A stretch of 64,000 nucleotides of DNA. It comes from a virus. Each line of letters begins with the position of its first letter. Position 1 is the stretch's first letter. This document shows, in pieces, positions 21,546 to 63,636 of this stretch. The stretch lies in IMG/VR virus record IMGVR_UViG_3300023184_000048, positions 32,001 to 96,000 of that record; one strand, given 5' to 3'. Below the pieces are notes generated by a model. It saw only the letters and a program-made list of their open reading frames with translations. It had not been told where the DNA came from and did not search any database. A program made the translations under genes and the position numbers.

Positions 21546-21569
21546 CTTTATTAAAAACTAGAATATCAT
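21542..21569 (+). promoter_or_regulatory. Early sigma70-type promoter (motif copy with -35)
   Basis: TTGACT-16 nt-TATCAT, 6 nt before ATG 21576. Confidence 0.8.
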
Positions 21570-21575
21570 CAGGGC

Positions 21576-21932
21576 ATGGGTAAAATTAAATTCAGAGCTT
21601 GGACTGGTGAGAGATTCGTGGATGAAGATTATTTCTATATAAGATATGGAAAGGTTTACACGATTACAGAATTTGATGGACTGGTCGATAAAAAATGGAT
21701 TCCTCAACAATACACTGGATTAAAAGATCTTAATAAAAAGGAGATTTATGAGGGTGATGTTTTCGAAGGGTCTACTTATAAATGGGAAGCTGTAGAATTC
21801 AAAGATGGTAGGTTCCAAGTCAACCTCATGGGGGCTAGAGTATATTCTTTGGAAGAGTTGTGTTGTGATATGGATCATATGCCACCAACAGTGATTGGGA
21901 ATATTTTCGAAAATCCTGAGCTTCTTAAATAA
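21576..21932 (+). CDS. YopX-family protein
   Basis: IKFRAW...QQYTGLKDLNKKEIYEGD...VIGNIFENPELL. Confidence 0.9.
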   Translation: MGKIKFRAWTGERFVDEDYFYIRYGKVYTITEFDGLVDKKWIPQQYTGLKDLNKKEIYEGDVFEGSTYKWEAVEFKDGRFQVNLMGARVYSLEELCCDMDHMPPTVIGNIFENPELLK

Positions 21933-21937
21933 TATAA

Positions 21938-22402
21938 GTGCTTCCTTTTAACAAAACATTCAATGATCTGATTTTGGAATATGCTCCAACCATGACATTG
22001 ACAACTGATCAATATTACTCAGAATTGAGTAATTATCTTGGACAGTTTGGAATGCATCTTGGTGAGAATAAATTCAATCCTGATTTAGATTATGTGAATC
22101 GTAAACAGATGGGAATTTATAAAGGTAAAGATCAAATCGGTAAAATTGAATTAAGAGTCATCAAAAATGTTTTAGTCCTTGATCATATTAAAAGTTATGG
22201 AAATTATTATAAAGAAAAGTTTGGACTGGTTGGAAAGATCTACCCATTCCATTATCAGATGGCTCTACTTCACAATCTTACAGTTAAATCGAATGCTGTG
22301 AATGATATTACTTATAATGCTTTCCTAAAAACATTTAAAGATTTCCAGATTAATAAAAAAGGCGCAAAATTAACAGCAATTCCGATAAACGATGAAATAT
22401 AA
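21938..22402 (+). CDS. Hypothetical late protein, possibly GNAT-like fold
   Basis: GTG 6 nt after TAAATA; N terminus FNKTFNDLILE; weak beta-beta-alpha pattern. Confidence 0.45.
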   Translation: MLPFNKTFNDLILEYAPTMTLTTDQYYSELSNYLGQFGMHLGENKFNPDLDYVNRKQMGIYKGKDQIGKIELRVIKNVLVLDHIKSYGNYYKEKFGLVGKIYPFHYQMALLHNLTVKSNAVNDITYNAFLKTFKDFQINKKGAKLTAIPINDEI

Positions 22403-22404
22403 AA

Positions 22405-22656
22405 ATGAATGATAAACAAAGAGAGAAGAGACATAAAAAGAATCAAAAGTCCAAACTCAAAAAGAAACTATTGAAGGAGATTAGACTTGATAAGTTTATT
22501 TTATGTTGTAGGCATAATTTGGTGGAATGGGGTTGCGACTGCTTCGCTGGGTGTGATTCCTGTGATTATGATAAACAATGTTCAAAGTGTCAAAGTCTTT
22601 ACAGCCCATCAGATCGGGTAAACTTCTTAAATATTCTTTGTGATAAACACCATTGA
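22405..22656 (+). CDS. Small basic Cys-rich hypothetical protein
   Basis: ORF track; multiple Cys pairs. Confidence 0.5.
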   Translation: MNDKQREKRHKKNQKSKLKKKLLKEIRLDKFILCCRHNLVEWGCDCFAGCDSCDYDKQCSKCQSLYSPSDRVNFLNILCDKHH

Positions 22657-23560
22657 AATCCTCAGATCTATCCTTTTTACCAAGGAGGATTTAGCTGATA
22701 TCACAAATCTTGGTGATACTTTTTCCGATAAAGATATCGAGTTCATGATCGAGTTCAAAAAGATTTATGAACTTGGTTTGGGGCAACTCAAAAAATTTTT
22801 AACAAAGCTTGATGAGGAGGGAAAAGACCTTGATACATATTCGATTCTTTATTATGTAGATATTCTGAATAATGGCCCTCTTGGATCATATGTAAGAGAA
22901 TACACCAAAGATAAAAAGTATTTCAATAATACACCAGATACTTTGGGGATAAACGGTAACAATAACTATTCTCCAATGAACATAGCAATGATTGGTGATC
23001 AATCTTATTCATTAGGATGTCATAATGATACCTATAATAAATTGCCTAAATTTATCCAAGATGGGTTGAAAACAGCAGTATCAAAGACTGAAGATTTATT
23101 TAGAAGTTGTGTGAAGAGTTCCACAGTGGTAGATAACACTTTACCACTCGTTGACAAAGATGCACAATCAAGATCTGACCTAGAATCTAAAGGAGAATGG
23201 GTGAAAAAATCAATAGGTTCTTATTGTGTAAAAGATTCTTTTTATTATTTGGCGATTAAGAAGATCAATCAACAGATCTATGATAAGGTCAAAGAAGAAT
23301 TGGGTGAAGAAGATTTCAGAGTGTTCTCAGATAAGAAAAAATACGATCCATTCTCCTCTGAACAAAATGAATCAACATCAACCAATACGAAAATTGAAAA
23401 GAATTTTATTGATGGTGAAGACACTCAAAAGATTACTTTAGATCTTCTTGGTGATGTATTTGATTCTGAGGAGAAACGTAAGGCAAGTTTGAAAATTTCA
23501 AATGTTTCTAAAGACAAGTATTATAAATTGAACTCAAATGAGGGTGTTCTCGGAGTTTGA
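22640..23560 (+). CDS. Hypothetical protein
   Basis: 306-aa ORF, no recognised motif. Confidence 0.6.
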   Translation: MINTIEILRSILFTKEDLADITNLGDTFSDKDIEFMIEFKKIYELGLGQLKKFLTKLDEEGKDLDTYSILYYVDILNNGPLGSYVREYTKDKKYFNNTPDTLGINGNNNYSPMNIAMIGDQSYSLGCHNDTYNKLPKFIQDGLKTAVSKTEDLFRSCVKSSTVVDNTLPLVDKDAQSRSDLESKGEWVKKSIGSYCVKDSFYYLAIKKINQQIYDKVKEELGEEDFRVFSDKKKYDPFSSEQNESTSTNTKIEKNFIDGEDTQKITLDLLGDVFDSEEKRKASLKISNVSKDKYYKLNSNEGVLGV

Positions 23561-23564
23561 GTTC

Positions 23565-23592
23565 TTGACATTATTAAAAACTAGTTTATAAT
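23565..23592 (+). promoter_or_regulatory. Early sigma70-type promoter (motif copy with -35)
   Basis: TTGACA-TTATTAAAAACTAGTT-TATAAT. Confidence 0.8.
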
Positions 23593-23616
23593 TTGTCTTC
23601 TTGATAAAATAATACT

Positions 23617-24264
23617 ATGCCATATCTAAATCATAACATTCCAACAATCACTTGTTTGATGAGAAACCAATTTCTTTTCAATCATGAAAGTGGGTTCGGT
23701 GAATATACGCCATGCGATGTTCATAGTGTCGCATCAATCGAAAAAAGAGTTCCATTATTCGAAGCTTTTTTAACCAATGGGGTCAATTGGACAAGACGAC
23801 CAATCACAGCATTTTGTTGGAAAGAGTGTGATCCCGTGCCGTTACATCGTGCCATGTATTGGGATTGCTTTAGTCCATATATCGATGTCCAGATAAGAAC
23901 AAGATTAAAAGGTCTTAGAGCCAAACTGATTACACCAGATGGAGATAAAGAATGGGGTGAATATATGTTTACTCTTGATTGGGGTTGGGAGAATAAATCC
24001 ATTCTTGATACAAATTTTTCTGAAACACCAGAACATAAATGCGCCCATTTATTTAAAATGGATAATGGAAATTTTTATGCTTATCCCAATAATAGAATTA
24101 TCTGGCATGATAAAGCGTGGACCGACATCTTACTTGATAAAAATCCGGGTTACAGAATTGATATGAATGTGTATAGTGTAGAAAACAATTGTTTGCAAAA
24201 TACCGATTATAGTTATATGACTGAGTTCACCTCTCCAAAAAATTTAGAACTTAAACGTCAATAG
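23617..24264 (+). CDS. Conserved phage hypothetical protein
   Basis: MPYLNHNIP...WDCFS...GEYMFTLDW...EHKCAH...AYPNNRIIW resembles a family I recall from aquatic phages; function unknown. Confidence 0.6.
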   Translation: MPYLNHNIPTITCLMRNQFLFNHESGFGEYTPCDVHSVASIEKRVPLFEAFLTNGVNWTRRPITAFCWKECDPVPLHRAMYWDCFSPYIDVQIRTRLKGLRAKLITPDGDKEWGEYMFTLDWGWENKSILDTNFSETPEHKCAHLFKMDNGNFYAYPNNRIIWHDKAWTDILLDKNPGYRIDMNVYSVENNCLQNTDYSYMTEFTSPKNLELKRQ

Positions 24265-24751
24265 CCGAAATCTTCTCAACTTCTTTTTCATCAACTTTAC
24301 TTCTCTTAAACATCTCCTTGAGAAGATCTTCTCTGGAAATGAATAATCCTGACTTATTACCAAGTAATTCATTTTCATTATCAGAAACTTTAGCTTCGAT
24401 TCTCATTTGCTCGATTTCCTTCTTGGTTTTATTTGAATTATCAGCAAGTTGAATCTTGGATAAAGTGTTGACAGCATTGACTAAAGCATTTACGAGAGTT
24501 GCAGTTGATTCAACCATTTTAGAATCTCCTCCAGCTTCTACATCAAGTTTCAAAGATTGAACCATATCCACACAATCATGAATAATCGTTGAAGTTTTTT
24601 GAATAACGAAATCTTCCAGTTCTTCTCTTTTGAGTTCGGGATGATCTTTTTTGACACGATTCAAAGAATTTGATTGATTTTTGATCTGGTTGATGATACT
24701 ATCAACATCACGGTCGAGTTCATCATCAAAGTCATCTTCAGCATTATTCAT
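24251..24751 (-). CDS. terS: Terminase small subunit, T4 gp16-like
   Basis: Helical pattern ..MVESTATLVNALVNAVNTLSKIQ.. and C-terminal NKSGLFISREDLLK, resembling gp16 (xxNNxLFxGSTxEL); TAAATA 5 nt upstream. Confidence 0.65.
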   Translation of the reverse strand: MNNAEDDFDDELDRDVDSIINQIKNQSNSLNRVKKDHPELKREELEDFVIQKTSTIIHDCVDMVQSLKLDVEAGGDSKMVESTATLVNALVNAVNTLSKIQLADNSNKTKKEIEQMRIEAKVSDNENELLGNKSGLFISREDLLKEMFKRSKVDEKEVEKISAIDV

Positions 24752-24792
24752 AAAAATATTTAATCTAAATATCCTTATATATCAACCCCTAT

Positions 24793-26079: not shown

Positions 26080-27156
26080 ATGGATATCAAAAATCAGGTA
26101 ATAGCCGCAAGACACAATGGAATGACTTATTCTCAAATTTATGATGAATTTGGAATTGCCAAAAGCACAGCCCGAGATTGGTATTCTCGATACATTGAAG
26201 ATTCTTATCAAGAAATTATCAATGACTCAGACACACCTGTTGGTTATGTCAACGACAATTTGCAAAGAGATAAACCTTCCAGATTCAAAAAGACTGAGGA
26301 TGAAGTTCTTGAATTTTTGGCACAATTAGCTCCAATCAAGGTTACGCCAAAATATGAAAATCAATCGACAATTACTTTGAGTGATTATGCTGTTGTTGGG
26401 TCAGATTTCCACTTCGGTTGTCATGATCCAAAAGCGATTGATATTTTCTTGGAAACCATTTTTCAAATTAAACCCAAGACTATTATTCTTAATGGTGATA
26501 CCATGGATTTCTTAGCTATTTCAAAATATCCAAAGGATCTGAAACATAATTGGTCACTTCAAAAAGAGCGTGAAGAGTATCATGCATTCTTGGATGAATT
26601 GATTGGTGTATCTGGTGGTGCTGATATATATGAAACCGTCTCAAATCACTCAGGACAGTCCGTAGGTGGAAGATGGAGGCGTTACCTATCTGATAGAATT
26701 GGAGAGCTTGCTTGCCTACCAGAGATCACAGAAACACTAAGTTATGAGAATGTCTTCATGGGTGATTATAAGAACCGTATTAAGCATGTCGATTATGTTG
26801 ATCTAAATGGTCTAATTGTTACTCATGGTGAAACAGTTAGAAGTGCTGGTGGTGCTTCATGTCTAGCAGAAGTTAATAAATGGGGTGCTAGTATCTTACA
26901 TGGTCATACTCACAGGTTGGGAATGTCGGTAAAAAGAATTCCAGCTATTGGTAATAGAAGTGAACAACAATTATACGGATTTGAATCGGGGTGTCTTTGT
27001 TCATTAGATGCCGCATATGGTAGCGGAATGAACTGGAATCAAGGTTTTAGTATAGTAAGTCTTGATCAGGATGGTCATACTTTTGGGGTCGAGCAAGTTT
27101 CAATTATCGGTGGAGTTTCAAATATTTCAACTTTGGGAAAAACTATCAGAGTCTGA
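26080..27156 (+). CDS. Calcineurin-like metallophosphoesterase with N-terminal HTH
   Basis: SDFH, NGDTMD, SNH, THG, HGHTH motifs; GMTYSQIYDEFGIAKSTARDW HTH. Confidence 0.85.
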   Translation: MDIKNQVIAARHNGMTYSQIYDEFGIAKSTARDWYSRYIEDSYQEIINDSDTPVGYVNDNLQRDKPSRFKKTEDEVLEFLAQLAPIKVTPKYENQSTITLSDYAVVGSDFHFGCHDPKAIDIFLETIFQIKPKTIILNGDTMDFLAISKYPKDLKHNWSLQKEREEYHAFLDELIGVSGGADIYETVSNHSGQSVGGRWRRYLSDRIGELACLPEITETLSYENVFMGDYKNRIKHVDYVDLNGLIVTHGETVRSAGGASCLAEVNKWGASILHGHTHRLGMSVKRIPAIGNRSEQQLYGFESGCLCSLDAAYGSGMNWNQGFSIVSLDQDGHTFGVEQVSIIGGVSNISTLGKTIRV

Positions 27157-27795
27157 ATAAATCCATTTAAACCCTTTGTGGGTTTTCTTTCTTCCCCGAC
27201 AGCAATGAACAATCATACTATGCATTGTCCCTAATTCATTACAGCATTCTTGAATAGAATTCCATTCTTTGATGAAAGAATTATCCAGTGTGAGTTGATG
27301 AATTTTTCTAGTTTTTGGTATTATATGATTCATACCTCTTCTCTTTAGAAATATTAGTTGACTCAATGATAAAGTCTTACCTTTATGGCTAATTGACATT
27401 TTATTTTTGGTTTCCGTGGAGTGTTTTTTGCCTATCATCTTTATTCGTTGATCTTCTGGCATTTTTCCTTTTATATAGTCGGCACCCACACCACCATCAG
27501 AAAAATTCACCAGAGTCCCCTCATTTGTATTCCTCTTTCCATATAGTTTAATAAAGTCTGTTTCTTTTGAAGAGATTTCGTCTTTTGAAAGATTTATACA
27601 CATGATTTCAACTTCATAAGCAGTTTTTGAGGTTATACTGTTCCAGAAAGCACTCCTACCTCTTGTTTCAAACGCTCTTTTAAATCTTTTATTTTCATTT
27701 TTAGCACTAACACCAACATAAAAAACTTCATTGGTGTCTAATCTAATGTGACGATACAAATATCCAGTATTTTGATTATCCCTTTTCAATTTCAT
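27127..27795 (-). CDS. Homing endonuclease, GIY-YIG-like with NUMOD3 and NUMOD1/HTH tail
   Basis: GYLYRHIRLDTNEVFYVG; KKHSTETKNKMS; FIKEWNSIQECC..I..CCRGRKKTHKGFKW. Confidence 0.8.
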   Translation of the reverse strand: MKLKRDNQNTGYLYRHIRLDTNEVFYVGVSAKNENKRFKRAFETRGRSAFWNSITSKTAYEVEIMCINLSKDEISSKETDFIKLYGKRNTNEGTLVNFSDGGVGADYIKGKMPEDQRIKMIGKKHSTETKNKMSISHKGKTLSLSQLIFLKRRGMNHIIPKTRKIHQLTLDNSFIKEWNSIQECCNELGTMHSMIVHCCRGRKKTHKGFKWIYSDSDSFSQS

Positions 27796-28007
27796 TGTTC
27801 ATCATCCTTTCTAATGATATAACCTTTACTTTTAAGAATATCACTTATATTAATCCAAATATCCTCATCTTCTTTAAAATTATTACTAATATAAATAGTT
27901 CCATTCTCTAGCTGAGATGCTTCAGGTATCAACCCTTGTTTGAAATGATTGTAAGCTGTTCTATAAGTTATTCCCTTCTCCTTCGCGTAATCCGATAATT
28001 TCATCAT
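27792..28007 (-). CDS. MerR-like HTH protein resembling the IS607 TnpA DNA-binding N terminus
   Basis: MKLSDYAKEKGITYRTAYNHFKQGLIP..QLENGTI; no serine-recombinase catalytic domain. Confidence 0.65.
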   Translation of the reverse strand: MMKLSDYAKEKGITYRTAYNHFKQGLIPEASQLENGTIYISNNFKEDEDIWINISDILKSKGYIIRKDDEQ

Positions 28008-28020
28008 ATAATTATTTAGT

Positions 28021-28047: not shown

Positions 28048-28082
28048 CTTGAATTAATTAAAAACTAGAATACAATACGGCT

Positions 28083-28544
28083 ATGTTAAATCAATTTCAT
28101 AAAAATAATTTGAAAGAGCAATGGGAAATCGATTTGGCTAATGATTTTCCCGAATTTTTCCTAGAACCTTCAGAAGAGGTTTTGAAAATATGGGAGGAAT
28201 ATCATGAGACTGGTGATATGCCTAGAAATAAAGAAGACCTATGCAACCTTAGATATGGTATGGAATTCAGGTCAGGTTGGTCAGGAATTGCTAGAGATCA
28301 TTTTGAATCTATCAGAAAACTTATCCAAAAGGCTAAGGATAATGGACATGATCTGGGTTATAAAGGTTTCATCATCAAACAAAAATGGCACACCTTGAGG
28401 GATCAGAGTGATCTTATTGGAGAAGATCGAAAGTTGTATTATAAGGAATATTCTAATTTGGTGGAAGATCTTTATGATAAATCAACCAAGGTTGATGAAA
28501 AAACAGGAGAACCAATTAATCAAGCTTTTGAACGATTATTTTAA
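28083..28544 (+). CDS. Hypothetical early protein
   Basis: ORF at early motif. Confidence 0.7.
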   Translation: MLNQFHKNNLKEQWEIDLANDFPEFFLEPSEEVLKIWEEYHETGDMPRNKEDLCNLRYGMEFRSGWSGIARDHFESIRKLIQKAKDNGHDLGYKGFIIKQKWHTLRDQSDLIGEDRKLYYKEYSNLVEDLYDKSTKVDEKTGEPINQAFERLF

Positions 28545-28546: not shown

Positions 28547-28792
28547 ATGAAAAAGACTTATAGAGGATGTGAAATCTATTCCAACCGCGAAAAGTGCTTA
28601 GGTGGATGGTCGCAAGTTTATTGGGGTGCTTTCGATCTAAAGGATGGGTATCAAATTTCGTGTGATCACACTGAAGGACCAGTGAAAGACGGCGTGTTAT
28701 ATGCTAAGACATCAGTAGATGAATATCTAGATGAATATAAGTCTGATCAAGATAAACATTCTGATCGTTGGTCATCTCTTTATAAATATTAA
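28547..28792 (+). CDS. Hypothetical protein
   Basis: ORF track. Confidence 0.6.
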   Translation: MKKTYRGCEIYSNREKCLGGWSQVYWGAFDLKDGYQISCDHTEGPVKDGVLYAKTSVDEYLDEYKSDQDKHSDRWSSLYKY

Positions 28793-28793
28793 C

Positions 28794-29543
28794 ATGAATT
28801 TTAAAATGTTTTTTGAGAAAAATATTTCTAATCCTCTGAGGAAACAGCAGATCAAAGATGAAGGTGGTTACGAATTTCCAACTTCAGAAAATAAAAGAAC
28901 CAAGATTGATGGAAAGTATCGTAAGATATATGAACACCAAGGAATTCAAGTTTTCTTAGACAGAACAATTACTTCTGATTTCTCACAAAGTTCATATAAT
29001 ATGAGAATGGTGAGATATTCAGTAAATGCTCTTTTAAGAGAATTGAGAGGCATCATTCCTAATAAAAAAGGCAGGATAGTAATTACTGATGTGAGTCAAA
29101 ACCCACTTGTTGGAAATAACATGACTACTGGTAAATCTGGTGGATTTTATCGTGATCGTATTGTTTATATTGATGAGTTTAGTGTGGATGATCCCAACAT
29201 TTGGAAACATGAATATGCTCATTATGTTGCTGATTTGATCCCGAAACAAACTGAGCCGATGTTGTATAAGGCTTATCAAGAATTACTAGATTCTTATTGG
29301 AAAAAGGCTAAGAAGAAGAGAAGACCCAATTTAGAACCAGAAGACCCAAGTTTTGTGGTCAGTGTGATGAAGGCGGAAAATATGAGAAGGAATATTTCTA
29401 AGAAATTGGGATTTCCAAGTTACGGATTAATGAACGAACATGAATTTTTTGCAGTCCTTATAGAAAACTGGAGTTCTCTTAGAAATGATCGAAACACGTA
29501 TAAGTTTAAATCATTAGTGAAAGTTGTTCTTGGTAGATTGTGA
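28794..29543 (+). CDS. Zincin-like metallopeptidase, late promoter
   Basis: HEYAH (HExxH) plus downstream NEHEFFA third-ligand motif; ATG 5 nt after TAAATA. Confidence 0.65.
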   Translation: MNFKMFFEKNISNPLRKQQIKDEGGYEFPTSENKRTKIDGKYRKIYEHQGIQVFLDRTITSDFSQSSYNMRMVRYSVNALLRELRGIIPNKKGRIVITDVSQNPLVGNNMTTGKSGGFYRDRIVYIDEFSVDDPNIWKHEYAHYVADLIPKQTEPMLYKAYQELLDSYWKKAKKKRRPNLEPEDPSFVVSVMKAENMRRNISKKLGFPSYGLMNEHEFFAVLIENWSSLRNDRNTYKFKSLVKVVLGRL

Positions 29544-29792: not shown

Positions 29793-29822
29793 CTTCATTA
29801 AAAACTAGGATATAATGTGGGA

Positions 29823-30023
29823 ATGAAAGACATTAAATTTTCACTTTTTATTGCGCTCACCTTTTGGTCTGCGATCATATCCAATGGCTGTTGGATTTTA
29901 TTCACACAAACTCCAAAGTTAAATCAGTCAGTCTTCATTCTAATATTTTTGGTTACGCTTGGACTATCATTTGCATATGTTATTGTTTTAATTAATAAAT
30001 TTGTAGATGATCTTGGCGAATGA
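29823..30023 (+). CDS. Small membrane protein with two TM segments
   Basis: Two hydrophobic stretches; ATG 6 nt after TATAAT with TTGACT -35. Confidence 0.65.
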   Translation: MKDIKFSLFIALTFWSAIISNGCWILFTQTPKLNQSVFILIFLVTLGLSFAYVIVLINKFVDDLGE

Positions 30024-53451: not shown

Positions 53452-54486
53452 TTAATCTGGAATTTTCCGACCAATAGAATTAAGAATTTCATTTCTTTTC
53501 TGAATAGCTTCTTCTAAAGTTTTTGCATTTGGTCTATATATCTTCTCCCCAGACTGTATATAGATTCTATAATAACCATTATCAAATCCTATATTAGCAT
53601 GTTTGATTTTTTTAGCTTTTTGTATGACTGTTTTGGGATGTGTGTAATTAGTTGATTTATACTGTTCGAGTTTTTCTGGAAAATTTAAATGGTCAAGATT
53701 TATATTATTGCACACATTTAAAAAATCAGCCATTTCTGCTGCTTCATCTTCAAGTGTAAAGGTTCCCAGCCTAGATTCAAAAGTTTTTGTATTGATGTGA
53801 ATCCTCCAAACATTGAATCTAGGCTCGTAGCACACCCAATTATATTTGGAAACTTTTAAATTCCTTTTCAGTGTTCTTTCTGGGGATGCGTGAATTCCTA
53901 GAATATAATTATCAAAATTTTCAGGAAAGTTCATCATCAGTTTAGCTGATTCATGATCAAATAGTTCTAAAAGTTTTACATCTCTAGCGAAAGCTGCATC
54001 TTGATCAGTTTTGAAATTTTTCTGAGAAACTTTCTTTCTATTAAAAGTTATACAATAATCCCATCTTTCCATATCATTATTAAAATAAACGCCGATATAA
54101 ATGGTCTTTCCATTATATCTATCTGAAAGCTTTTCTTTTTTTGACTTCTTGAGTCCCTCAACTAGAGAGATCTTCATAGCATCTGTGAATTCTCCAGATA
54201 CAGAATTTTCTATAATATTATAACCATTTTTGGTAGTCAGAGAATTATACAAGTTTATGTAGTGTGTCTCTTTAATAAGAGCTGATCCCAGATCAATTGC
54301 AGTATCAATTTTCTCAATCTTGAATTTGTCTTTTCCATACTTTATCATGGCATTTCTCAACGGGAGATTGGTATTTTTCTTTTTGGAGAAATGGCCATTT
54401 AACCTAAGATTAAGTGGTTGTTTTGTTATTCCAATATAAACCTTATCATTTACACTATTTGTTATTTTATAAATCTTTCTCTCCAT
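53452..54486 (-). CDS. GIY-YIG homing endonuclease with three AP2-like domains
   Basis: KIYKITNSVNDKVYIG; YIGVYF..W..F...AA.ARD, KYNWVCY..W..LGTF..E.EAA, Y..I..TLEEAI..RN; ATG 5 nt after TAAATA. Confidence 0.8.
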   Translation of the reverse strand: MERKIYKITNSVNDKVYIGITKQPLNLRLNGHFSKKKNTNLPLRNAMIKYGKDKFKIEKIDTAIDLGSALIKETHYINLYNSLTTKNGYNIIENSVSGEFTDAMKISLVEGLKKSKKEKLSDRYNGKTIYIGVYFNNDMERWDYCITFNRKKVSQKNFKTDQDAAFARDVKLLELFDHESAKLMMNFPENFDNYILGIHASPERTLKRNLKVSKYNWVCYEPRFNVWRIHINTKTFESRLGTFTLEDEAAEMADFLNVCNNINLDHLNFPEKLEQYKSTNYTHPKTVIQKAKKIKHANIGFDNGYYRIYIQSGEKIYRPNAKTLEEAIQKRNEILNSIGRKIPD

Positions 54487-54544
54487 ACATTTATTTAGTC
54501 CATAACTACCGAAAATCAATTAAAAACTAGATTACAATACACAC

Positions 54545-56467
54545 ATGATTATTAAACATACTAGCTCGCCTGTCATAACTTCTGGAGATATGGAAGATTC
54601 CAAGATGGAGATTGATCCAAATAATTCAGACTTTGTTGCCCTTCTACTCAGAAACAACATCTACACCGATAAGATTTTAGCCCCCATTAGGGAGATTACA
54701 GTGAATGGCGTAGATGCCAATATTGAATCTGGTTCCAATGAAACTGTTCAAGTTAAAATTACATATGAATCAGGTTCGTATACTTGGAGTTGCCGAGATA
54801 ATGGGTTGGGTCTTTCGGAAAATGATGTTAGAAACATTTTTGGAAAAATTGGGGCATCTAATAAAAGACATTGTAATAAACAAGCAGGTATGTTTGGATT
54901 GGGTTCGTTTTCCCCATTTGCTGTTGGGGATACATACCACGTTACTTCACATCATAATGGGTTGAAATCGATATATTGTGCCACTCTTGTTGCGGGTGAT
55001 CAGGCCATTAATGTGGGTCGTCTTTATAAAGTGTCAGAAGAACCAACCACTGAAACGGGTATTGAAGTATCCTTTGATATCACTAAGGATTATTGGAAAT
55101 TTCACGATAAGACTAAAACATTTATTAATAATTTTCTACCCGAAACAAATGTTCAATACGAGGATCACAATGGCGAAGTCCACACACCCCTACAACCAAT
55201 TCTGACATATGAGAAGAATGGATTCGTGATCAATGCATATGATTCAAAGGATTATTATAATACTGAAAAGGTTTGGATTCGTATGGGTGGTGTTGTCTAC
55301 AATCATAACCATAAACTTGTAAAATATGGAACATTCAAACATCAACTTATTGTCGATGTTCCAATTGGAATGCTCACCATTCCACCATCCAGAGAGTCTT
55401 TAGATGTTTCGGCTAATAATGATCGAGTTCTCAAGGAGATTGATGATATTATTCTAGAAATTTATGAGAATGATAAGAAATCCCTTACGGTTCCAAAGTT
55501 TGGTGAATTTGTATCTGGTGAAAAATCAGGTAAAACATATGAAAGTGAATGGTGTAAGTATAATCTTTTTGAATTATTTCCTGATACGGAAAAGCTTAGG
55601 AGGATAACGTCATCCAATCACAAGATGTATGGCGATCCAATCAAGCCTAATGCCAATGGTAAGTATATCATCTATACTTTTCCTGAAATTAGAACGGTTA
55701 AGAGTTGGATCAAACGTCTTGAAGCAGTTCTGACCATTGATCCTGATTATTCTGGTTGTCTTGCAGTATTTCAAACTGCGAAAGTGATGGCTGAACTTAG
55801 TAAGAATACAGAGACTCTTGATGTTTCTGATTGTATCTTTGTGGATGTTAAGAGTCTTGGTCTTCCCAAGCTTGTAACTAATCCTAAAGATAAAGATGAT
55901 GGACCAACCGAATATGTCATCTACAAGAACGGTGATAAGGATTATAAGACGATTGATGGACTTGATGAAGATAATGATTCAGAGATTTATAAAGATGCTG
56001 AGTGGTATAAGTCTGAGAAGTTGACCCGTGATCAGTTCCTCAATCGTTGTATTGGTTGGGCTAATACAAATGATGATCGTCATGGTCATGGTAGAGATAA
56101 TAGATTTTGGACTACTGGTGCTAAGAAAATGTATGATGGTCTTGTCGAACTTGGGTTTATTGAAATAAATTCTAAGACCTATAAAGACACCATGAGTCTT
56201 ATTAGTTCCAGAGAACAAAAACAAAATGATATCTCTCAAGCTCAATCAAGAATCAAAGGTGTGACTTTCAAGATTGATGTTCTTCAACAAGTTGCTACTG
56301 CCATTGGTAAAAATCCCAGCAAGCTTGATCGTCTGAAAAACATCAAAGCTAAAATCTTGTTGGAAGATTCTCCACGCAGTCGTATCCTTAAACAAATTGA
56401 GGATACCTATAGCTATCGCACCAATTTGACTCGTTCTGATCTGCGAATGATTCTGAAAATGAAATAA
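54545..56467 (+). CDS. rIIA: rIIA-like protein (GHKL ATPase N terminus)
   Basis: NIYTDKILAPIREITVNGVDA, CRDNGLGL, GMFGLGSFSPF, TGIEV. Confidence 0.8.
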   Translation: MIIKHTSSPVITSGDMEDSKMEIDPNNSDFVALLLRNNIYTDKILAPIREITVNGVDANIESGSNETVQVKITYESGSYTWSCRDNGLGLSENDVRNIFGKIGASNKRHCNKQAGMFGLGSFSPFAVGDTYHVTSHHNGLKSIYCATLVAGDQAINVGRLYKVSEEPTTETGIEVSFDITKDYWKFHDKTKTFINNFLPETNVQYEDHNGEVHTPLQPILTYEKNGFVINAYDSKDYYNTEKVWIRMGGVVYNHNHKLVKYGTFKHQLIVDVPIGMLTIPPSRESLDVSANNDRVLKEIDDIILEIYENDKKSLTVPKFGEFVSGEKSGKTYESEWCKYNLFELFPDTEKLRRITSSNHKMYGDPIKPNANGKYIIYTFPEIRTVKSWIKRLEAVLTIDPDYSGCLAVFQTAKVMAELSKNTETLDVSDCIFVDVKSLGLPKLVTNPKDKDDGPTEYVIYKNGDKDYKTIDGLDEDNDSEIYKDAEWYKSEKLTRDQFLNRCIGWANTNDDRHGHGRDNRFWTTGAKKMYDGLVELGFIEINSKTYKDTMSLISSREQKQNDISQAQSRIKGVTFKIDVLQQVATAIGKNPSKLDRLKNIKAKILLEDSPRSRILKQIEDTYSYRTNLTRSDLRMILKMK

Positions 56468-56477: not shown

Positions 56478-56550
56478 TTTGAGGTAGATTTTGTAATCTC
56501 ATTCTGATAGTAAATGATAAGAATGGCTGGTTCGATCCCAGCACCTCAAA
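56478..56550 (+). ncRNA. Degenerate tRNA-like structure
   Basis: Acceptor-like TTTGAGGT/ACCTCAAA, short D-like GATT/AATC hairpin, central hairpin containing CTGATA, perfect T-arm GCTGG-TTCGATC-CCAGC; no CCA. Confidence 0.55.
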
Positions 56551-56584
56551 TCTTTCTGATTAAAAACTAAAATATAATACTCAT

Positions 56585-56803
56585 ATGAAGAGAGCATTTT
56601 GGTTCCACTACAATAAGCCTGAGTCGAGTAAGGTCGGTAAACCTCAGATCACTGTTCATTATATGAATGCCTGCCATATCGTGGATAATGTCGTCATCAA
56701 TTGTATGACTGCTGGAAGGCTTAGAAAGACTCAACCTAGATGGGTTGTTGCTGGTAAGGCCAAGGAAATCATCTTTAAGGATGGAGTAGCAATTATTAAT
56801 TAA
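56585..56803 (+). CDS. Conserved small phage protein
   Basis: FWFHYNKP...ITVHY...K.QPRWVVAG pattern; early motif. Confidence 0.65.
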   Translation: MKRAFWFHYNKPESSKVGKPQITVHYMNACHIVDNVVINCMTAGRLRKTQPRWVVAGKAKEIIFKDGVAIIN

Positions 56804-56824
56804 AAACTAAAATACAATAAGACC

Positions 56825-57085
56825 ATGACTGAAGAACAAATCAAAGAAGAATCACTAAAGATTTACAATCAAAGAATTCAAGAAGAAAAGATTCAAAAGG
56901 CTGCGAATGAACTTTATGATGCTGCTAATAAGATGACTATCATTAATAATTCTTGCCAATCCTTTTATGATAAATGGCTGGATGTTTCAAACAAATTAGT
57001 AAAGCTTAATGATGTTTGGCAAACCTTTCTCAGTGATAGGGATTATAAAAAGTTTTGCGAAGAATATACCAAAATTTCAATTTGA
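56825..57085 (+). CDS. Hypothetical early protein
   Basis: Early motif. Confidence 0.6.
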   Translation: MTEEQIKEESLKIYNQRIQEEKIQKAANELYDAANKMTIINNSCQSFYDKWLDVSNKLVKLNDVWQTFLSDRDYKKFCEEYTKISI

Positions 57086-58243: not shown

Positions 58244-58287
58244 TTCATTAAAAACTAGAGTATAATAACAACGAAGCAAGAAACAAT

Positions 58288-59286
58288 ATGAAATACATTA
58301 CCAACAATACTAAAATCATCCTATTCATTAATGGGAAGTCAATCAGTGTCGAAAAGACTGATAAGCGTTATCCTAAGATCGTCAAGGTATTTGAACTACC
58401 TTCAAGCGAACAAGAGGATGCAGTTTTAAAGGTTCTTGAACCTGCTGAAGTATCAGTCAAATCTATCCATGGTCAAAATGGCTTTGAAGTGGTTGATGAA
58501 GATATCTTCTACAAGGGTGAAAAGCTTCCTAATGCTTTTGCGACAAAGATCAAGAGCATCATTCGTGATGGTCTTCCTCTGGAACATTTTGAAAAGTTTT
58601 GGGAGAATCTCAAGGAGAATCCATCCGCCAACTCTATCAATGAGTTGATTGATTTCCTTTCTAATAAGGAACTTCCAATTACTGATGATGGGTTCTTTAT
58701 TGCTTATAAGGGTGTGGATCATGGTTATTATTCCATCCATGGGAATCTGGACACTAAGGTTCTGACTGGGAATGTTGATGCATCTGGACGCATTTATAAT
58801 GCTGTCGGTGAATACATTTCGGTTGCTCGCAATCAAGTTGATGATGATCGCAATAAACATTGTTCGTTTGGCTTGCACTGCGGGGCTTTGGGATATTCGC
58901 AATCATTTGGTTCTAAGACAGTTGTGGTGAAGGTAAATCCGAAAGATGTTGTATCAGTTCCAACTGATTGTTCCTTCATGAAATGTAGAGTATGTGCTTA
59001 TGAAGTTGTTTCGGAATATACCCACGAAATTGAATCATCTGTAGTTGATTCCAAAGGTCAAGAAACAATTGTGACAAATGATACGAAGGATCGAAACCAA
59101 TTCATCGAAAAGATTTCAACATATCTGAATCGTCGTGCTGATCGTGGTTATGAAGAAGCTACAGTGAGACAAATTCAAAATAGTTTTTCACCTGCTTGGC
59201 CAAGTAAGGAAAGTATCCTAGACGCTTTACAACATTTGGGATACTTCTGGTCCGAAATTGATGGAGTTCTTGTTGTAGAATTGTAA
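58288..59286 (+). CDS. rIIB: rIIB-like protein
   Basis: ENPSANSINELIDFL..LPITDDG..IAYK, VDDDRNKHCSFGLH, VKVNPKDVVSVP. Confidence 0.85.
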   Translation: MKYITNNTKIILFINGKSISVEKTDKRYPKIVKVFELPSSEQEDAVLKVLEPAEVSVKSIHGQNGFEVVDEDIFYKGEKLPNAFATKIKSIIRDGLPLEHFEKFWENLKENPSANSINELIDFLSNKELPITDDGFFIAYKGVDHGYYSIHGNLDTKVLTGNVDASGRIYNAVGEYISVARNQVDDDRNKHCSFGLHCGALGYSQSFGSKTVVVKVNPKDVVSVPTDCSFMKCRVCAYEVVSEYTHEIESSVVDSKGQETIVTNDTKDRNQFIEKISTYLNRRADRGYEEATVRQIQNSFSPAWPSKESILDALQHLGYFWSEIDGVLVVEL

Positions 59287-59386: not shown

Positions 59387-59412
59387 ATTAAAAACTATAA
59401 TATAATAACCAT

Positions 59413-59757
59413 ATGAAAAACAATACTAAAGAAACTATCCTCAAAACATATATTCGAGATAATGACAATAACCCTCGCGGTGTTGCTGTTGCTGTCAGGA
59501 ATGATGATCGTGTCTCTTATGGATTTAGTCTCTTGAATAACTACCGGGATAAGTTCAATAAGAAGATCGGAACTGCGATTGCTATCAATCGTGCCTCACA
59601 ACCTTCATATGAACTTCCAGAAGTCCCTGAAAGGGAAACATTGGTTCTTGATGCATTTATTAATCTCGAAAAGCGATCCTTGAAATACTTCAAGGATATC
59701 AATCCTGATAATATCGTGTTGAAGGGTCATCTATCCACTTTGCCTTGGGAAGAGTGA
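59413..59757 (+). CDS. Conserved phage hypothetical protein
   Basis: YGFSL...DKFNKKIG..IAINRA pattern. Confidence 0.65.
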   Translation: MKNNTKETILKTYIRDNDNNPRGVAVAVRNDDRVSYGFSLLNNYRDKFNKKIGTAIAINRASQPSYELPEVPERETLVLDAFINLEKRSLKYFKDINPDNIVLKGHLSTLPWEE

Positions 59758-60206: not shown

Positions 60207-60415
60207 AAGCAACTAGAACAGAACCAATTTATACATTAGAGATGACGGAATCTGAAGCTTTGCTTCTATTAGCTCTTATAGGTGACTTAACGTGGGTAGA
60301 TTGGAAAAGACATCTTGATAATTATTCAGGTATGTTTGATCATATCACTTCAAAGGATAGTGATGTTTTCTATAAAGCTATTATCTCTACCGGATTGGTC
60401 GTTCCCGATATTTAA
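60203..60415 (+). CDS. Hypothetical protein (paralog of next gene)
   Basis: TLEMTESEALLL..LIG. Confidence 0.6.
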   Translation: MKATRTEPIYTLEMTESEALLLLALIGDLTWVDWKRHLDNYSGMFDHITSKDSDVFYKAIISTGLVVPDI

Positions 60416-60436
60416 AAACTAAAATATAATAAACTT

Positions 60437-60694
60437 ATGAAAGCTACCACACAAATTAAAAAGATTGAAAAAACTGTAACCGTTGATGAGAAAATGATCA
60501 CTCTTGAAATGAGTGAAAAAGAAGCTCGTAGATTGTTTTGTGTGTTGGGATCGATCTCACCAGCGGATTTTAAGAACAAATGTTCGGTTGATCTTAATGA
60601 TGTTTTGATGGTGGGTGATATTCCTTTTGATTGGACTCCCGTTGATACAAATATCTATTACAACGCATTGTCTGATGTGATTGAAATTGATTAA
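60437..60694 (+). CDS. Hypothetical protein (paralog of previous gene)
   Basis: TLEMSEKEARRL..VLG. Confidence 0.6.
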   Translation: MKATTQIKKIEKTVTVDEKMITLEMSEKEARRLFCVLGSISPADFKNKCSVDLNDVLMVGDIPFDWTPVDTNIYYNALSDVIEID

Positions 60695-60715
60695 AAACTA
60701 GAATATAATACACTT

Positions 60716-61243
60716 ATGAAAACTAAATTTGATTGGGGTGATGATATGATTGACAGTAGAGATTTGATTGCTCGTCATGAAGATCTTCAAGATGAATATG
60801 ATGGTCTTGTTTCTGATTTAAAAGATGTCAATGAAGCATATGTAGAGTATCAAGACAAGTGTGCTGGTGCTGTTGAATTTGATCAAGAAGAATTTGATAA
60901 TGATGTTGATGACCTTCAAAAGAATATTGATGAAGCTCAAGAAGCTCTTGATCAATTCAATCAATCCTATGAGAAGGATGAACTTGACACACTTACTGAA
61001 GTGATTTCTCAAGGTGAAGATTCTCCTGATTGGAATCATGGTGAAGGTTTGATTCACGAATCGTATTTTGAAACATACACACAAGACCTTATTGATGATA
61101 CTTGTGAATTGCCTAAAGAATTAAATTCTGGTCAATGGCCATATAGACATTATGAGCTAGATCTTACTGCGGCATCTGAAGAGTTGAAAGCTGATTATAT
61201 GACTATTGATGCTGGTGGTCACACTTATTACATTCGAGCATAA
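60716..61243 (+). CDS. Very acidic protein, ArdA-like antirestriction/DNA-mimic candidate
   Basis: D/E-rich; C terminus PYRHYELDLTAASEELKADY...GGHTYYIR resembles the ArdA tail. Confidence 0.55.
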   Translation: MKTKFDWGDDMIDSRDLIARHEDLQDEYDGLVSDLKDVNEAYVEYQDKCAGAVEFDQEEFDNDVDDLQKNIDEAQEALDQFNQSYEKDELDTLTEVISQGEDSPDWNHGEGLIHESYFETYTQDLIDDTCELPKELNSGQWPYRHYELDLTAASEELKADYMTIDAGGHTYYIRA

Positions 61244-61411: not shown

Positions 61412-61715
61412 TTACAAATCACTCACAATCGAGGATCTCAAGAAAGATTATTCTGATAGATTTGGATTTATCTTTGCGAGTAATGTGAGGAGTTCTGATA
61501 CAGCTATTGAAAATCTTTGTCAGACTTTAATCACTCATAATATTACTGATACATTACCGGAGTTTGTCAGTAGAGATTCTGGTAATACTATAGTATTTGT
61601 TTATCCCGAAGATTGCACATTTAAATCAGGGGAGTTTTATCATAAGAGTCAAATGTTGAGACAAATGGGAATTGCTCAAGTTGATACATTGGCTGGATTT
61701 CTAAAGGATATTTAA
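61404..61715 (+). CDS. Hypothetical protein
   Basis: ORF track; start moved to MINYK. Confidence 0.6.
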   Translation: MINYKSLTIEDLKKDYSDRFGFIFASNVRSSDTAIENLCQTLITHNITDTLPEFVSRDSGNTIVFVYPEDCTFKSGEFYHKSQMLRQMGIAQVDTLAGFLKDI

Positions 61716-61736
61716 AAACTAAAATATAATACACTT

Positions 61737-61949
61737 ATGATTACATTCTCTAAAGTTATCAGAAAATCTGGAAGCTCTATGAAAACTATTGAAGTTTCAA
61801 AAGATGAAAAACCTTTTGGATCACTGTGGACTTGGTTTGAAAAAGGTGAAGAACATCCTTGGCATGTTAAACCATTGACAAGAGAACATAAATTCTTTTA
61901 CGGTAAAAATGGTCTGAAAATGGCTAAAGAATATATCAAATCAGTTTGA
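61737..61949 (+). CDS. Hypothetical early protein
   Basis: Early motif. Confidence 0.65.
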   Translation: MITFSKVIRKSGSSMKTIEVSKDEKPFGSLWTWFEKGEEHPWHVKPLTREHKFFYGKNGLKMAKEYIKSV

Positions 61950-61975
61950 TTAAAAACTAGAATATAATAGAACAT

Positions 61976-62173
61976 ATGAAAACTGAATCATTTTTTCACC
62001 AATCCCATCCTTGGGTTGGAACTCAGCACTGTTTACGAGAAAAAGATGGAGAAGAATTTCAATGCATTAATGATCATACTGGATGTATCTGGAATGATGG
62101 ACATAATACTTGTATGTTTGAAAGACCTTCTAAGAAACAATACGACTCACCTCTCAATCAAAAATTAGTATGA
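61976..62173 (+). CDS. Hypothetical Cys/His protein
   Basis: Early motif with 7-nt spacing. Confidence 0.6.
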   Translation: MKTESFFHQSHPWVGTQHCLREKDGEEFQCINDHTGCIWNDGHNTCMFERPSKKQYDSPLNQKLV

Positions 62174-62388
62174 AAACACTGTTCACTTGGTTTCTAAAAC
62201 TAACCACAAAAGATTACGATCAAAAGATCAAATCTGCTAAACTAACATCCAAGATGATTATTGATTCTACTAATGGATCTATCAATCATTTCTATAATAT
62301 GAATGGTGATCAGATTCGTGGTTATCATAAGCATATAAAGTTTAGTAATATAGACAACCAACATCCACTAACTAAAAAATATCAATAA
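62170..62388 (+). CDS. Hypothetical protein
   Basis: ATGA coupling. Confidence 0.55.
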   Translation: MKTLFTWFLKLTTKDYDQKIKSAKLTSKMIIDSTNGSINHFYNMNGDQIRGYHKHIKFSNIDNQHPLTKKYQ

Positions 62389-62389
62389 T

Positions 62390-62620
62390 ATGAGACAAGA
62401 TTTACAAGGTTTTTGCATAGGAGTTCTTACAGGTGCTTTTGCTTTAGGAATTTATTGTTCTTTTTTCGCACAAAATACTAAAATGTATAGGGATGGTGTT
62501 GAAGCTACCTATAAAGAAGCCTTTGCACAAGGTTTGATGGTTAAAGAAATTACCGAAGATGATAAAGTGATTTATCGTTTTATTGAGACGCACAAAATTG
62601 GATATGACGGAGAACAATAA
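62390..62620 (+). CDS. Small membrane-anchored protein
   Basis: N-terminal TM helix. Confidence 0.6.
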   Translation: MRQDLQGFCIGVLTGAFALGIYCSFFAQNTKMYRDGVEATYKEAFAQGLMVKEITEDDKVIYRFIETHKIGYDGEQ

Positions 62621-63026
62621 AAATAAACTAATTCTAGCTGGAACAGTAATTGCGTCATTCATTTCTGGGTGTGTTATAGGTAAGTATTCAAAAGGTCAAT
62701 TTACTTTACTGAGATTGCTCTTAGGATCAATTCTATTGGCTTTTGCAATCGGCCCTGATACATTTGGCTGGTTTGGTATTATCTACTGTCTGAGGTGCTT
62801 TCTAGGTATTGCAGGGGCGTGTATTCTTGGTAAGATGACTGAGTATAATCTTCATAGTCTTGGTATGTTGATTACTGGTATTTTGGTATACTTTATCGCA
62901 ATGGCACCTGATAGTTTTGATCTTGTTTCTTTCTATACAACTATTAATCAAGATATTCTACAAATTGTGTTTCGGTTGATTGGTGCTTTCATGATTGTGG
63001 TTGGATTTAAGAAGAATGAAGAATGA
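62604..63026 (+). CDS. Polytopic membrane protein
   Basis: About five hydrophobic segments. Confidence 0.6.
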   Translation: MTENNKNKLILAGTVIASFISGCVIGKYSKGQFTLLRLLLGSILLAFAIGPDTFGWFGIIYCLRCFLGIAGACILGKMTEYNLHSLGMLITGILVYFIAMAPDSFDLVSFYTTINQDILQIVFRLIGAFMIVVGFKKNEE

Positions 63027-63151
63027 AAAGGATTTTAAAAATAATTTTTATGGAAGTTCTATATGGTCTTGTCCCAGTTTTGGTTGGGTTTTACTTGGCA
63101 AAATGGGAACAACGAAATAAAAAGGCCAAAAATTCAGTGGTGAATGTTTGA
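63023..63151 (+). CDS. 42-aa membrane peptide absent from the track
   Basis: MKRILKIIFMEVLYGLVPVLVGFYLAKWEQRNKKAKNSVVNV*; ATGA coupling. Confidence 0.55.
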   Translation: MKRILKIIFMEVLYGLVPVLVGFYLAKWEQRNKKAKNSVVNV

Positions 63152-63176
63152 TTAAAAACTAAAATATAATAATTAC

Positions 63177-63611
63177 ATGAAAAGCAATTACATTTGGCAT
63201 TTGGTTGGATTTACTCAAGATGCTGTTGAAGGTTATCAATTCTCAAGAGAGATGAACGACTTGTATAAGTCTTTGAATGATACTCAAAGAGCTACAATGT
63301 TTCGTGAGTATAAAGAGAATTATATGTATGCTAAAGTTATTGGTCATTATCGACTCGGAACTTTTTCATCATTAGAAAAAGCTAAGGATATGATCAATTC
63401 TGGTTGTAGCGATCTTCATCGTTACCCAACTCTTCTCATTGAGAAGCATATGATTGACCATATTGATGCACAATGTTTTTGCGAAGATGAATGGGAGACT
63501 TGGTATGGTATCACCGAAGAAGGTTGGATCAACGATGGTTGGATCGAATCATGGGAATTTTTTGAGATTGATCGTCCTGATTATGTTATGGGAACCTGTG
63601 GGTGGGCTTGA
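63177..63611 (+). CDS. Hypothetical early protein
   Basis: Early motif. Confidence 0.65.
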   Translation: MKSNYIWHLVGFTQDAVEGYQFSREMNDLYKSLNDTQRATMFREYKENYMYAKVIGHYRLGTFSSLEKAKDMINSGCSDLHRYPTLLIEKHMIDHIDAQCFCEDEWETWYGITEEGWINDGWIESWEFFEIDRPDYVMGTCGWA

Positions 63612-63636
63612 TTAAAAACTAAACTATAATCATCAT

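Follow-up and report, generated by a model that had tools for sequence, protein, structure and literature searches.

Arrays of repeated promoters in front of small phage genes have been described as promoter-early stem-loops (PeSLs), which are found in the hyperplastic regions of RB49/phi1, T4/PST and KVP40/nt-1 (PMC2839356, PMC4122927). A PeSL is about 100 bp long and contains an AT-rich region, a -35 and a -10 box, a G/C-rich stem-loop terminator and a Shine-Dalgarno (SD) sequence before the ATG (PMC2839356). The element described here was found in a window of 64,000 nt, i.e. bases 32001-96000 of a 116,741-bp viral contig from IMG/VR, and consists of the box TTAAAAACTA, three further nucleotides and a -10-like hexamer, which is followed at a mostly fixed distance by an ATG. 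Like a PeSL, it places a repeated sigma70-like promoter before single small, mostly unassigned genes on one strand, it carries a stop codon for the upstream gene within the repeat, and the gene order differs between relatives with breakpoints located at the repeats. In contrast to PeSLs, the unit measures 25 bp, has neither stem-loop nor SD sequence and mostly no -35, and shows an invariant box at positions -25 to -16 as well as an ATG at the predicted +1. We read it as a compact promoter joined to the start codon of a leaderless mRNA, representing a terminator-free variant of the PeSL cassettes, and assign to this reading a probability of roughly 0.7.

Leaderless messages are known from other phages. 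In the Thermus phage phiYS40 the middle and late transcripts are leaderless (review PMC3594737), leaderless genes are common in the Thermus lineage, and their accepted sequence mark is a TA-like signal some 10 bp upstream of the start codon (PMC3160421). Like the phage studied here, phiYS40 is a large myovirus, and in both of them whole temporal classes consist mostly of leaderless transcripts, as predicted from the sequence in our case and as shown experimentally for phiYS40; the latter differs in that it infects Thermus, is not T4-like and possesses no repeated cassette array. The cI gene of lambda, when transcribed from PRM, is a single leaderless phage gene (10.1101/2023.09.02.556006). There, too, the promoter is placed for a start at the A of the AUG, yet cI is an isolated regulatory gene, whereas about 80 of the approximately 205 genes of our contig have this layout. 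In phiKZ, no leaderless transcripts occur. Our literature searches returned no description of leaderless T4-like phages or of such a promoter layout in them. T4-type phages are the textbook case of leadered, SD-bearing mRNAs made from early, middle and late promoters. What appears to be new here is a combination of two known things, PeSL-type cassettes and phage leaderless regulons, in a T4-like phage.

The assignment to the T4-like phages is based on protein matches. The terminase, sheath and rIIA proteins match cultured phages at 24-41% identity, with T4-like cyanophages as top cultured matches for terminase and sheath (about 35%), and a megablast search against known phages gave no nucleotide match for the contig. 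Since nucleotide similarity is lacking and protein identity to T4-like cyanophages is only about 35%, the sequence marks this phage, which comes from a lake, as a deep-branching uncultured T4-like myovirus. A collection of viral contigs was scanned for the motif, which turned up in others with 38-41% GC, and four relatives, termed G001 (177 kb), G002, G003 and G004, were studied in depth along with our contig (G000).

Geometry of the box array and the predicted start site

The box TTAAAAACTA is present in 32 exact copies on the + strand of the window, between 21551 and 63612, and in no exact copy on the - strand; one further good copy with a single mismatch, TTAAAAACTG, is located at 38073. 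This gives 33 credible copies of TTAAAAACTA-N3-TAnnnT, two look-alikes at 38809 and 47694 being left uncounted as degenerate and situated inside or beside genes. An earlier sequence-only reading of the window had proposed 34 copies, 30 of them exactly 6 nt before an ATG. The array and its fixed spacing are real, while both counts are slightly lower: the gap between hexamer and ATG is exactly 6 nt in 29 of the 33 copies, the exceptions being 23574 (24 nt), 47815 (9 nt), 58248 (21 nt, rIIB) and 61950 (7 nt). The three examples it had cited, with ATGs at 33923, 40746 and 60716, are correct.

The array extends past the window up to the contig end, and in total the 116.7-kb contig carries 73 + strand copies and a single one on the - strand. 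We determined for each + strand copy the distance to the first ATG that opens an open reading frame (ORF) of at least 40 codons. The resulting distribution, for which a flat histogram had been named beforehand as the refuting outcome, is strongly peaked, with 51 of the 73 copies at 6 nt, 11 at 9 nt, two at 7 nt, one at 8 nt, five at longer distances and three with no such ATG. All box-fronted starts counted in this way are ATG, the only start codon that was scanned for. The box itself is far more frequent than expected, as the 10-mer with at most one mismatch yields 44 matches compared to 16.9 ± 3.9 in shuffled sequences, and the 19-mer pattern is found over the whole contig 40 times in forward orientation, never in reverse and never with a reversed-pattern control. 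The + strand contains 106 TATAAT hexamers elsewhere, and none of them has an ATG at 6 nt.

Aligned on the A of the ATG as +1, the 51 six-nt copies place the hexamer at -12 to -7 and the box at -25 to -16. In the hexamer, the first position is T in 50/51 copies, the second A and the sixth T in 51/51, which fits the -10 consensus TAnnnT with invariant A(-11) and T(-7). A pyrimidine occupies position -1 in 50/51 copies (p = 1e-15), directly before the A at +1. The spacers comprise 40 distinct sequences of a single length, so that the earlier statement that they vary in sequence and not in length is borne out; two of them, ACTCAT and AAACGT, recur five times each. Sigma70-type polymerase starts about 7 nt after the -10 hexamer. 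According to our reading, each copy would thus combine a sigma70-family -10 element (mostly TATAAT) with a lineage-specific box, and the A of the ATG with its preceding pyrimidine would lie at the usual start point of the polymerase. The mRNA would begin with AUG, to which the ribosome would bind at the 5' end without SD pairing.

The copies with a 9-nt gap are informative in this respect. In all 11 of them, a pyrimidine-A step is retained at positions 6-7 after the hexamer, and therefore the start-site context is tied to the -10 element and not to the ATG. For this class a 3-nt leader is predicted, with the ATG one triplet further on. Hence, the original proposal of a +1 on the A of the ATG and of leaderless messages agrees with the geometry, with the pyrimidine at -1 and with the spacing kept in relatives, while the 11 copies at 9 nt depart from it. 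Moreover, for rIIA and Rnl2 the ATG that follows the box is the real start, since the alignments to the family profiles begin at residues 1 and 7 of these proteins, respectively.

A -35 element, TTGAC(A/T) or TTGAAT, located 16-17 bp upstream of the hexamer, is found at six contig copies only, namely at contig position 12836 and at window positions 21551, 23574, 28058, 29798 and 38073, i.e. mostly at the left end of the array (21.5-30 kb). A weaker TTGAAA occurs at two more copies, which leaves about 65 of the 73 without a -35, so that this element is no general part of the unit. The invariant A(-11)/T(-7) and the six copies with a correctly spaced -35 corroborate the assignment to the sigma70 family made by the sequence-only reading. 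Its designation of the genes as an early class may not hold for many of them, since most copies have no -35 and depend on the invariant box; the same layout is also seen at late genes. Other promoter types were considered and rejected: TTAAAA inside the box cannot serve as a -35, as the spacer would be 7 nt; a sigma54-type -24/-12 promoter lacks its GG/GC; and the hexamer does not fit the Bacteroidota consensus TAnnTTTG. In comparison with T4 middle promoters, the box at -25 to -16 has a sequence unlike that of the MotA box, which is centred at -30.

Which protein reads the box bears on a first alternative, in which a phage-modified or phage-encoded polymerase starts elsewhere, e.g. at the A directly after the hexamer, yielding a 6-nt leader. 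An A is indeed present at that position in 46/51 copies, and the motif, near-invariant over 19-20 nt, resembles promoters of single-subunit polymerases in length and uniformity. Furthermore, host sigma70 promoters do not usually show the 100% conservation that the box has over about 250 copies in the five contigs, and most copies lack a -35. On the other hand, the pyrimidine-purine step is kept at position 7 after the hexamer and not at position 1, the nAnnnT variation of the hexamer is typical of recognition by a sigma factor, and T4-like phages are known to use the host polymerase. A candidate enzyme was not found in the five contigs either: sigma70 region 2 was not found in any of them, one of which is 87% complete; a beta-subunit homologue (PF00562) was not detected with a valid control; no T7-like RNA polymerase (PF00940) was found, with a control search that was also without a positive; and AsiA gave no match, a weak negative since its control search found none as well. 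PHROG and Pfam scans of 40 proteins revealed no transcription factor. Taken together, we consider a different polymerase improbable, and the most economical reading is host sigma70 holoenzyme, perhaps with a putative phage protein bound at -25 to -16. Because about 65 of the 73 copies have no -35 and rely on the invariant box, many of them may be middle-type or factor-dependent promoters.

Late promoters and translation signals

The T4 late promoter TATAAATA is read by gp55 together with gp33 and the gp45 clamp; it is an 8-bp box with its first base at -13 (PMC2988020). With this register the last A of the box falls on -6, so that a gap of 5 nt places the A of an ATG at +1. In our contig, 29 ORF starts on both strands have their ATG 5 or 6 nt behind nTAAATA, without an upstream -35. 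The genes concerned include the terminase and sheath genes as well as those for the wedge and tape-measure-like proteins. The late genes would therefore follow the same layout as the box-fronted ones, with TAAATA in place of the box and hexamer, a motif that is read in T4 by the late sigma factor gp55. As in T4, the motif is nTAAATA, has no upstream element and is used on both strands, and both relatives G001 and G002 possess a homologue of gp55 (40% identity, E = 1e-15). One TAG falls within the matched part of this homologue (G002:33973-34335, G001:62001-62363), whose open frame has 150 aa; the TAG reflects either an alignment overhang or a real interruption.

The fused form is also seen outside our contig. 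G001 has 44 starts with TAAATA at a 5-nt gap. In the control genomes of T4 and cyanophage P-SSM2, in contrast, the distance between late box and ATG is mostly 12-50 nt, in T4 with an intervening SD sequence, and neither genome shows a 5-nt peak. The cultured Pelagibacter phage HTVC008M (NC_020484) shares the fused late form at 12 starts, where TAAATA stands exactly 5 nt ahead of the ATG; its other late genes have GGAG leaders. In a published survey, late promoters could reportedly not be predicted in pelagimyophage genomes (PMC7029224). Of the two explanations that the sequence-only reading had offered, a phage-wide strategy or a host lineage using leaderless initiation, the late promoters favour the former.

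On the + strand of the window, late boxes with a 6-nt gap precede the 603-aa baseplate wedge protein (TAAATA, 653-667, ATG 665), the large terminase (8166-8180, ATG 8178), a 190-aa protein (9944-9958, ATG 9956) and the 655-aa tape-measure-like protein (16962-16976, ATG 16974). A 5-nt gap is found at 4684-4697 (ATG 4695, 169 aa), 13883-13896 (ATG 13894, 188 aa), 14471-14484 (ATG 14482, 138 aa), 18939-18952 (ATG 18950, 283 aa) and before the tail sheath gene (11480-11493, ATG 11491), whose G001 orthologue has the same box with the same 5-nt gap. Two further 5-nt sites are candidates within longer ORF calls, one at 10537-10550 (ATG 10548, 285 aa, inside a longer ORF called from GTG 10458) and one with the sequence TATAAATA at 28783-28796 (ATG 28794, 249 aa, in frame inside an ORF called from 28731).

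The late boxes recorded on the - strand of the window have a 5-nt gap. They are located at 54484-54497 (ATG 54486, a 344-aa gene within the early array), 47649-47662 (ATG 47651, 270 aa, homologous to the homing-endonuclease-like gene located at position 6796 of the contig), 28005-28018 (ATG 28007, 71 aa), 24749-24762 (ATG 24751, 166 aa) and 8138-8151 (ATG 8140, 309 aa), the last being divergent from the terminase late box. A candidate internal box at 7769-7782 (ATG 7771, 186 aa) lies in frame inside the 309-aa ORF, and another candidate at 7137-7150 (ATG 7139, 115 aa) in frame inside a 128-aa ORF call.

With respect to translation, an SD-like match of at least 4 nt is missing at 58 of 61 box-fronted starts, and the few box-fronted genes with leaders of 21-28 nt also lack an SD sequence. 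The missing SD sequence, noted already by the sequence-only reading, is thus confirmed, yet it does not mark this gene class: among the genes with neither promoter motif, an SD-like motif precedes 14 of 121, which is below the 18.7% seen at random positions. As SD sequences are missing genome-wide, their absence at box starts is not specific, and the SD test for leaderlessness does not discriminate. Strong SD sites (AAGGAGG) occur only twice in 116 kb, at window positions 35620-35650 and at contig positions 27980-28005, about 4 kb before the window start; of the two genes that they precede, one has 66 aa and the other 307 aa. Among the + strand genes without a promoter, 63 of 97 overlap the upstream stop codon or lie at most 5 nt from it. 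Judged by these signals, translation in this phage begins in two ways that need no SD sequence, at promoter-fused starts and by stop/start coupling; the promoterless genes would form short operons that are read by such coupling, and the whole phage would express its genes without SD leaders.

These data also bear on a second alternative, namely that the motif acts in the RNA. Polycistronic transcripts would then start elsewhere, and the motif would represent an AU-rich, non-SD ribosome-binding, enhancer or processing site in a non-SD host. A fixed distance to the start codon is just what is expected of a ribosome-binding site, TATAAT and TAAATA are both AU-rich and end 5-6 nt before the AUG, no terminators are found between the cassettes, and the lack of SD sequences throughout the genome would suit such a host. 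However, conserved A(-11) and T(-7) form a -10 pattern, while the other hexamer positions drift in the relatives (A and T were required by the scan), and six copies possess a correctly spaced -35. TAAATA is the core of the T4 late promoter in a lineage that encodes gp55, and in the 9-nt class the pyrimidine-A follows the hexamer while the ATG moves. In addition, the 121 genes without either motif are presumably translated, so that the motif is no general ribosome-binding site. We therefore regard an RNA element as quite improbable and retain the promoter joined to the start codon as the preferred reading.

Conservation, rearrangement and weighing of the evidence

The layout is retained in the relatives. 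In G001-G004, which have GC contents of 38-42%, the box and the pyrimidine-A step are kept together with gaps of 6 and 9 nt, with 5 to about 65 copies per relative, nearly all on one strand. The gap is 6 nt in 52 of 67 copies of G003 (9 nt in 7), in 39 of 66 copies of G002, sampled over a 40-kb end (9 nt in 18), and in 27 of 39 copies of G001. CA or TA prevails at positions 6-7 after the hexamer in all relatives. The hexamer itself drifts to nAnnnT, e.g. TACAAT, TACACT, CATAAT, GATAAT or TAAGAT, A2 and T6 being required by the scan. A looser scan brought up more multi-copy contigs from other samples.

Proteins of our contig share 25-70% identity with their homologues in G001 and G003. Among 12 orthologous pairs with a box in both genomes, 10 keep the 6-nt gap and none has a spacer sequence in common, and therefore the length of the spacer is under selection and its sequence is not. 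This comparison speaks to a third alternative, in which the fixed gap is the passive legacy of copying a box-to-ATG unit and was not selected for leaderless expression. Copying does seem to occur, as promoter subtypes group by position: GAATATAAT prevails in the window, AACTATAAT is found at 102-105 kb of the contig and AAGTAAAAT at 111-113 kb, and the 113-116 kb region holds a GATTA(A/G)AAT subtype with a 9-nt gap, often as ACTACTATC. Such clustering suggests local duplication or gene conversion of cassettes, and the breakpoints of relatives at boxes as well as the two spacers that recur five times each point the same way. Passive copying does not account, however, for 40 different spacers of one length among 51 copies, for orthologues that keep 6 nt at 35-65% protein identity without any common spacer sequence, for the conserved pyrimidine(-1)/A(+1), or for an unrelated late box that is fused likewise. 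We consider it very improbable as the explanation of the fixed gap.

Apart from its putative promoter function, the box serves two other purposes. Within the 19-mer, positions 2-4 read TAA, positions 9-11 TAG or TAA and positions 16-18 TAA, i.e. stops in all three frames, and such an in-box stop closes the upstream ORF of 33 out of 61 cassettes in our contig and of 56 out of 62 in G003. Because the upstream ORFs end inside the box, there is no room for a stem-loop. Terminator-like sites are not enriched (5 in 20 kb compared to 7.7 expected) and none is located at a cassette joint. The early gene order is scrambled between G000 and G003. No relative close enough to G000 for mapping breakpoints was found, and these were determined between G001 and G003, a closer pair: here, 26 of 84 ends of homologous segments lie at most 30 nt from a box, compared to 10.4% for random positions (p = 2e-7), an approximately 3-fold enrichment. 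In one G001/G003 case two segments are swapped, each of them bounded by boxes. By these comparisons the box is a shared joint at which relatives rearranged their gene cassettes.

Several points weigh against a promoter fused to leaderless starts. The start site is placed by E. coli-type rules, which may not be those of the host; about 65 of the 73 copies are devoid of a -35 and may need more than host polymerase; and the start site could be shifted by a factor bound to the box. A ribosome-binding element would likewise show a fixed distance to the ATG. The 9-, 7- and 8-nt copies and the leaders of 21-28 nt indicate that a 5'-terminal AUG is not obligatory. Since terminators are missing, read-through transcripts must exist, and in these the ATGs behind the boxes are internal. 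Predicted 5' structure does not separate box-fronted from other genes, as box-fronted, late and other genes have equally weak folds in their first 45 nt (about -2.8 compared to -4.8 kcal/mol for random 45-mers). Finally, gp55 was not found on this contig, which according to CheckV is 57% complete. What the sequence shows directly is the motif with its geometry and conservation, the lack of SD sequences, the in-box stops and the breakpoint enrichment in relatives; the start position, leaderless translation, early timing and the nature of the protein reading the box we infer. Most messages of this phage probably begin at the start codon without a ribosome-binding leader.

Cassettes of the window and meaning for T4-like phages

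The DNA has a GC content of about 33%. Within the window, the first 21 kb code for the baseplate wedge protein, the large terminase, the tail sheath and the tape-measure-like protein, while the remaining part holds rIIA, rIIB, two RNA ligases and many small genes of no assigned function, nearly all on the + strand. The host was approached in several ways. The terminase has about 1,500 metagenomic relatives, some at 55-74% identity, all of the latter being metagenome proteins that gave no host; an rIIA-based search for close relatives of G000 found none; and among host clues sought on the contig, there are no WhiB and no tRNA genes.

The box cassettes of the window all lie on the + strand and have a 6-nt gap unless another is given. 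Those with a -35 are located at 21551-21578 (TTGACT 16 nt upstream of the hexamer TATCAT; ATG 21576, 118 aa), 23574-23619 (TTGACA, TATAAT, 24-nt leader without SD; ATG 23617, 215 aa), 28058-28085 (TTGAAT, TACAAT; ATG 28083, 153 aa), 29798-29825 (TTGACT, TATAAT; ATG 29823, 66 aa) and, as the copy TTAAAAACTG before the Rnl2-type RNA ligase, 38073-38100 (TTGACT, TATGAT; ATG 38098, 344 aa). Further genes with an assigned function are a metallophosphoesterase behind the box at 33898-33925 (no -35; ATG 33923, 241 aa), the Rnl1-type RNA ligase (45731-45758; ATG 45756, 363 aa), rIIA (54520-54547, TACAAT; ATG 54545, 640 aa) and rIIB, whose box with TATAAT is followed by a 21-nt A-rich leader without SD (58248-58290; ATG 58288, 332 aa). 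Box and 6-nt gap are kept in the G001 and G003 orthologues of the cassettes at 43892-43919 (ATG 43917, 146 aa) and 51607-51634 (TATCAT; ATG 51632, 184 aa), and in the G003 orthologue of 40721-40748 (ATG 40746, 202 aa) with another spacer sequence. The 9-nt class is represented by 47815-47845 (CATAAT, spacer aaacat-ACA with T-A at positions 6-7; ATG 47843, 300 aa), and the 7-nt gap by 61950-61978 (ATG 61976, 65 aa).

Variant hexamers are also found at 36891-36918 (CATAAT; ATG 36916, 152 aa), 39315-39342 (TACAAT; ATG 39340, 104 aa) and 56800-56827 (TACAAT; ATG 56825, 86 aa). The other cassettes are 35426-35453 (ATG 35451, 64 aa), 36216-36243 (ATG 36241, 217 aa), 41961-41988 (ATG 41986, 125 aa), 43240-43267 (ATG 43265, 136 aa), 44650-44677 (ATG 44675, 148 aa), 48978-49005 (ATG 49003, 127 aa), 50621-50648 (ATG 50646, 127 aa), 51371-51398 (ATG 51396, 73 aa), 56560-56587 (ATG 56585, 72 aa), 59388-59415 (ATG 59413, 114 aa), 60412-60439 (ATG 60437, 85 aa), 60691-60718 (ATG 60716, 175 aa), 61712-61739 (ATG 61737, 70 aa), 63152-63179 (ATG 63177, 144 aa) and 63612-63639 (ATG 63637, 84 aa). 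The cassette at 53322-53349 (ATG 53347) opens an ORF of 32 codons only. Transcription from this box would be antisense to the 344-aa minus-strand gene at 53452-54486 (late box 54497), and the box could serve in antisense control of this inserted gene.

Some neighbouring features deserve mention. RNA-repair and end-healing genes cluster in the early array between 26080 and 47666; they comprise the Rnl2-type ligase (38098), an RlaP-family nucleotidyltransferase (39944) and the Rnl1-type ligase (45756), accompanied by three metallophosphoesterases at 26080, 31704 and 33923. GIY-YIG or homing-endonuclease-like genes sit on the strand opposite to the early array. One of them (46839-47651) has its own late box (47662), and another (27127-27795) comes after the small gene that bears the late box at 28018. 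Between the rIIA stop codon and the next box, the + strand at 56479-56550 can adopt a cloverleaf-like fold, in which the acceptor stem measures 7 bp, the T arm has 5 bp and a GTTCGATCC loop, the D-like arm is short, and the 'anticodon' stem of 6 bp closes a loop of 14 nt (minimum free energy -21.7 kcal/mol, z = -3.0). ARAGORN and Rfam did not call it a tRNA, and an Rfam search of the window gave no match; the fold may be a decayed or unusual tRNA-like element.

A more far-reaching proposal, which we put forward tentatively, is that a large, uncultured aquatic T4-like clade runs its whole programme without SD leaders, such that only a 5'-terminal or stop-coupled AUG is translated. The 19-bp module would then be promoter, three-frame stop and recombination joint in one, and the box would be read by a putative phage factor that replaces -35 recognition, a new type of promoter take-over distinct from that by MotA/AsiA. 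If true, the rule of a 5'-terminal or coupled AUG would explain why nearly every small gene has its own promoter.

If the promoters are indeed fused to leaderless starts, the T4 plan can run on leaderless translation, with early-type as well as late promoters joined to the start codons, and arrays with one promoter per gene would follow from the rules of translation. The approximately 80 leaderless genes per genome would provide a natural set for studying this route, and gene finders would gain a strong start-site signal in this clade. The 25-bp module of promoter, three-frame stop and ATG would represent a very compact natural expression joint. With its fused late promoters, HTVC008M makes part of this idea bench-testable in a cultured phage.

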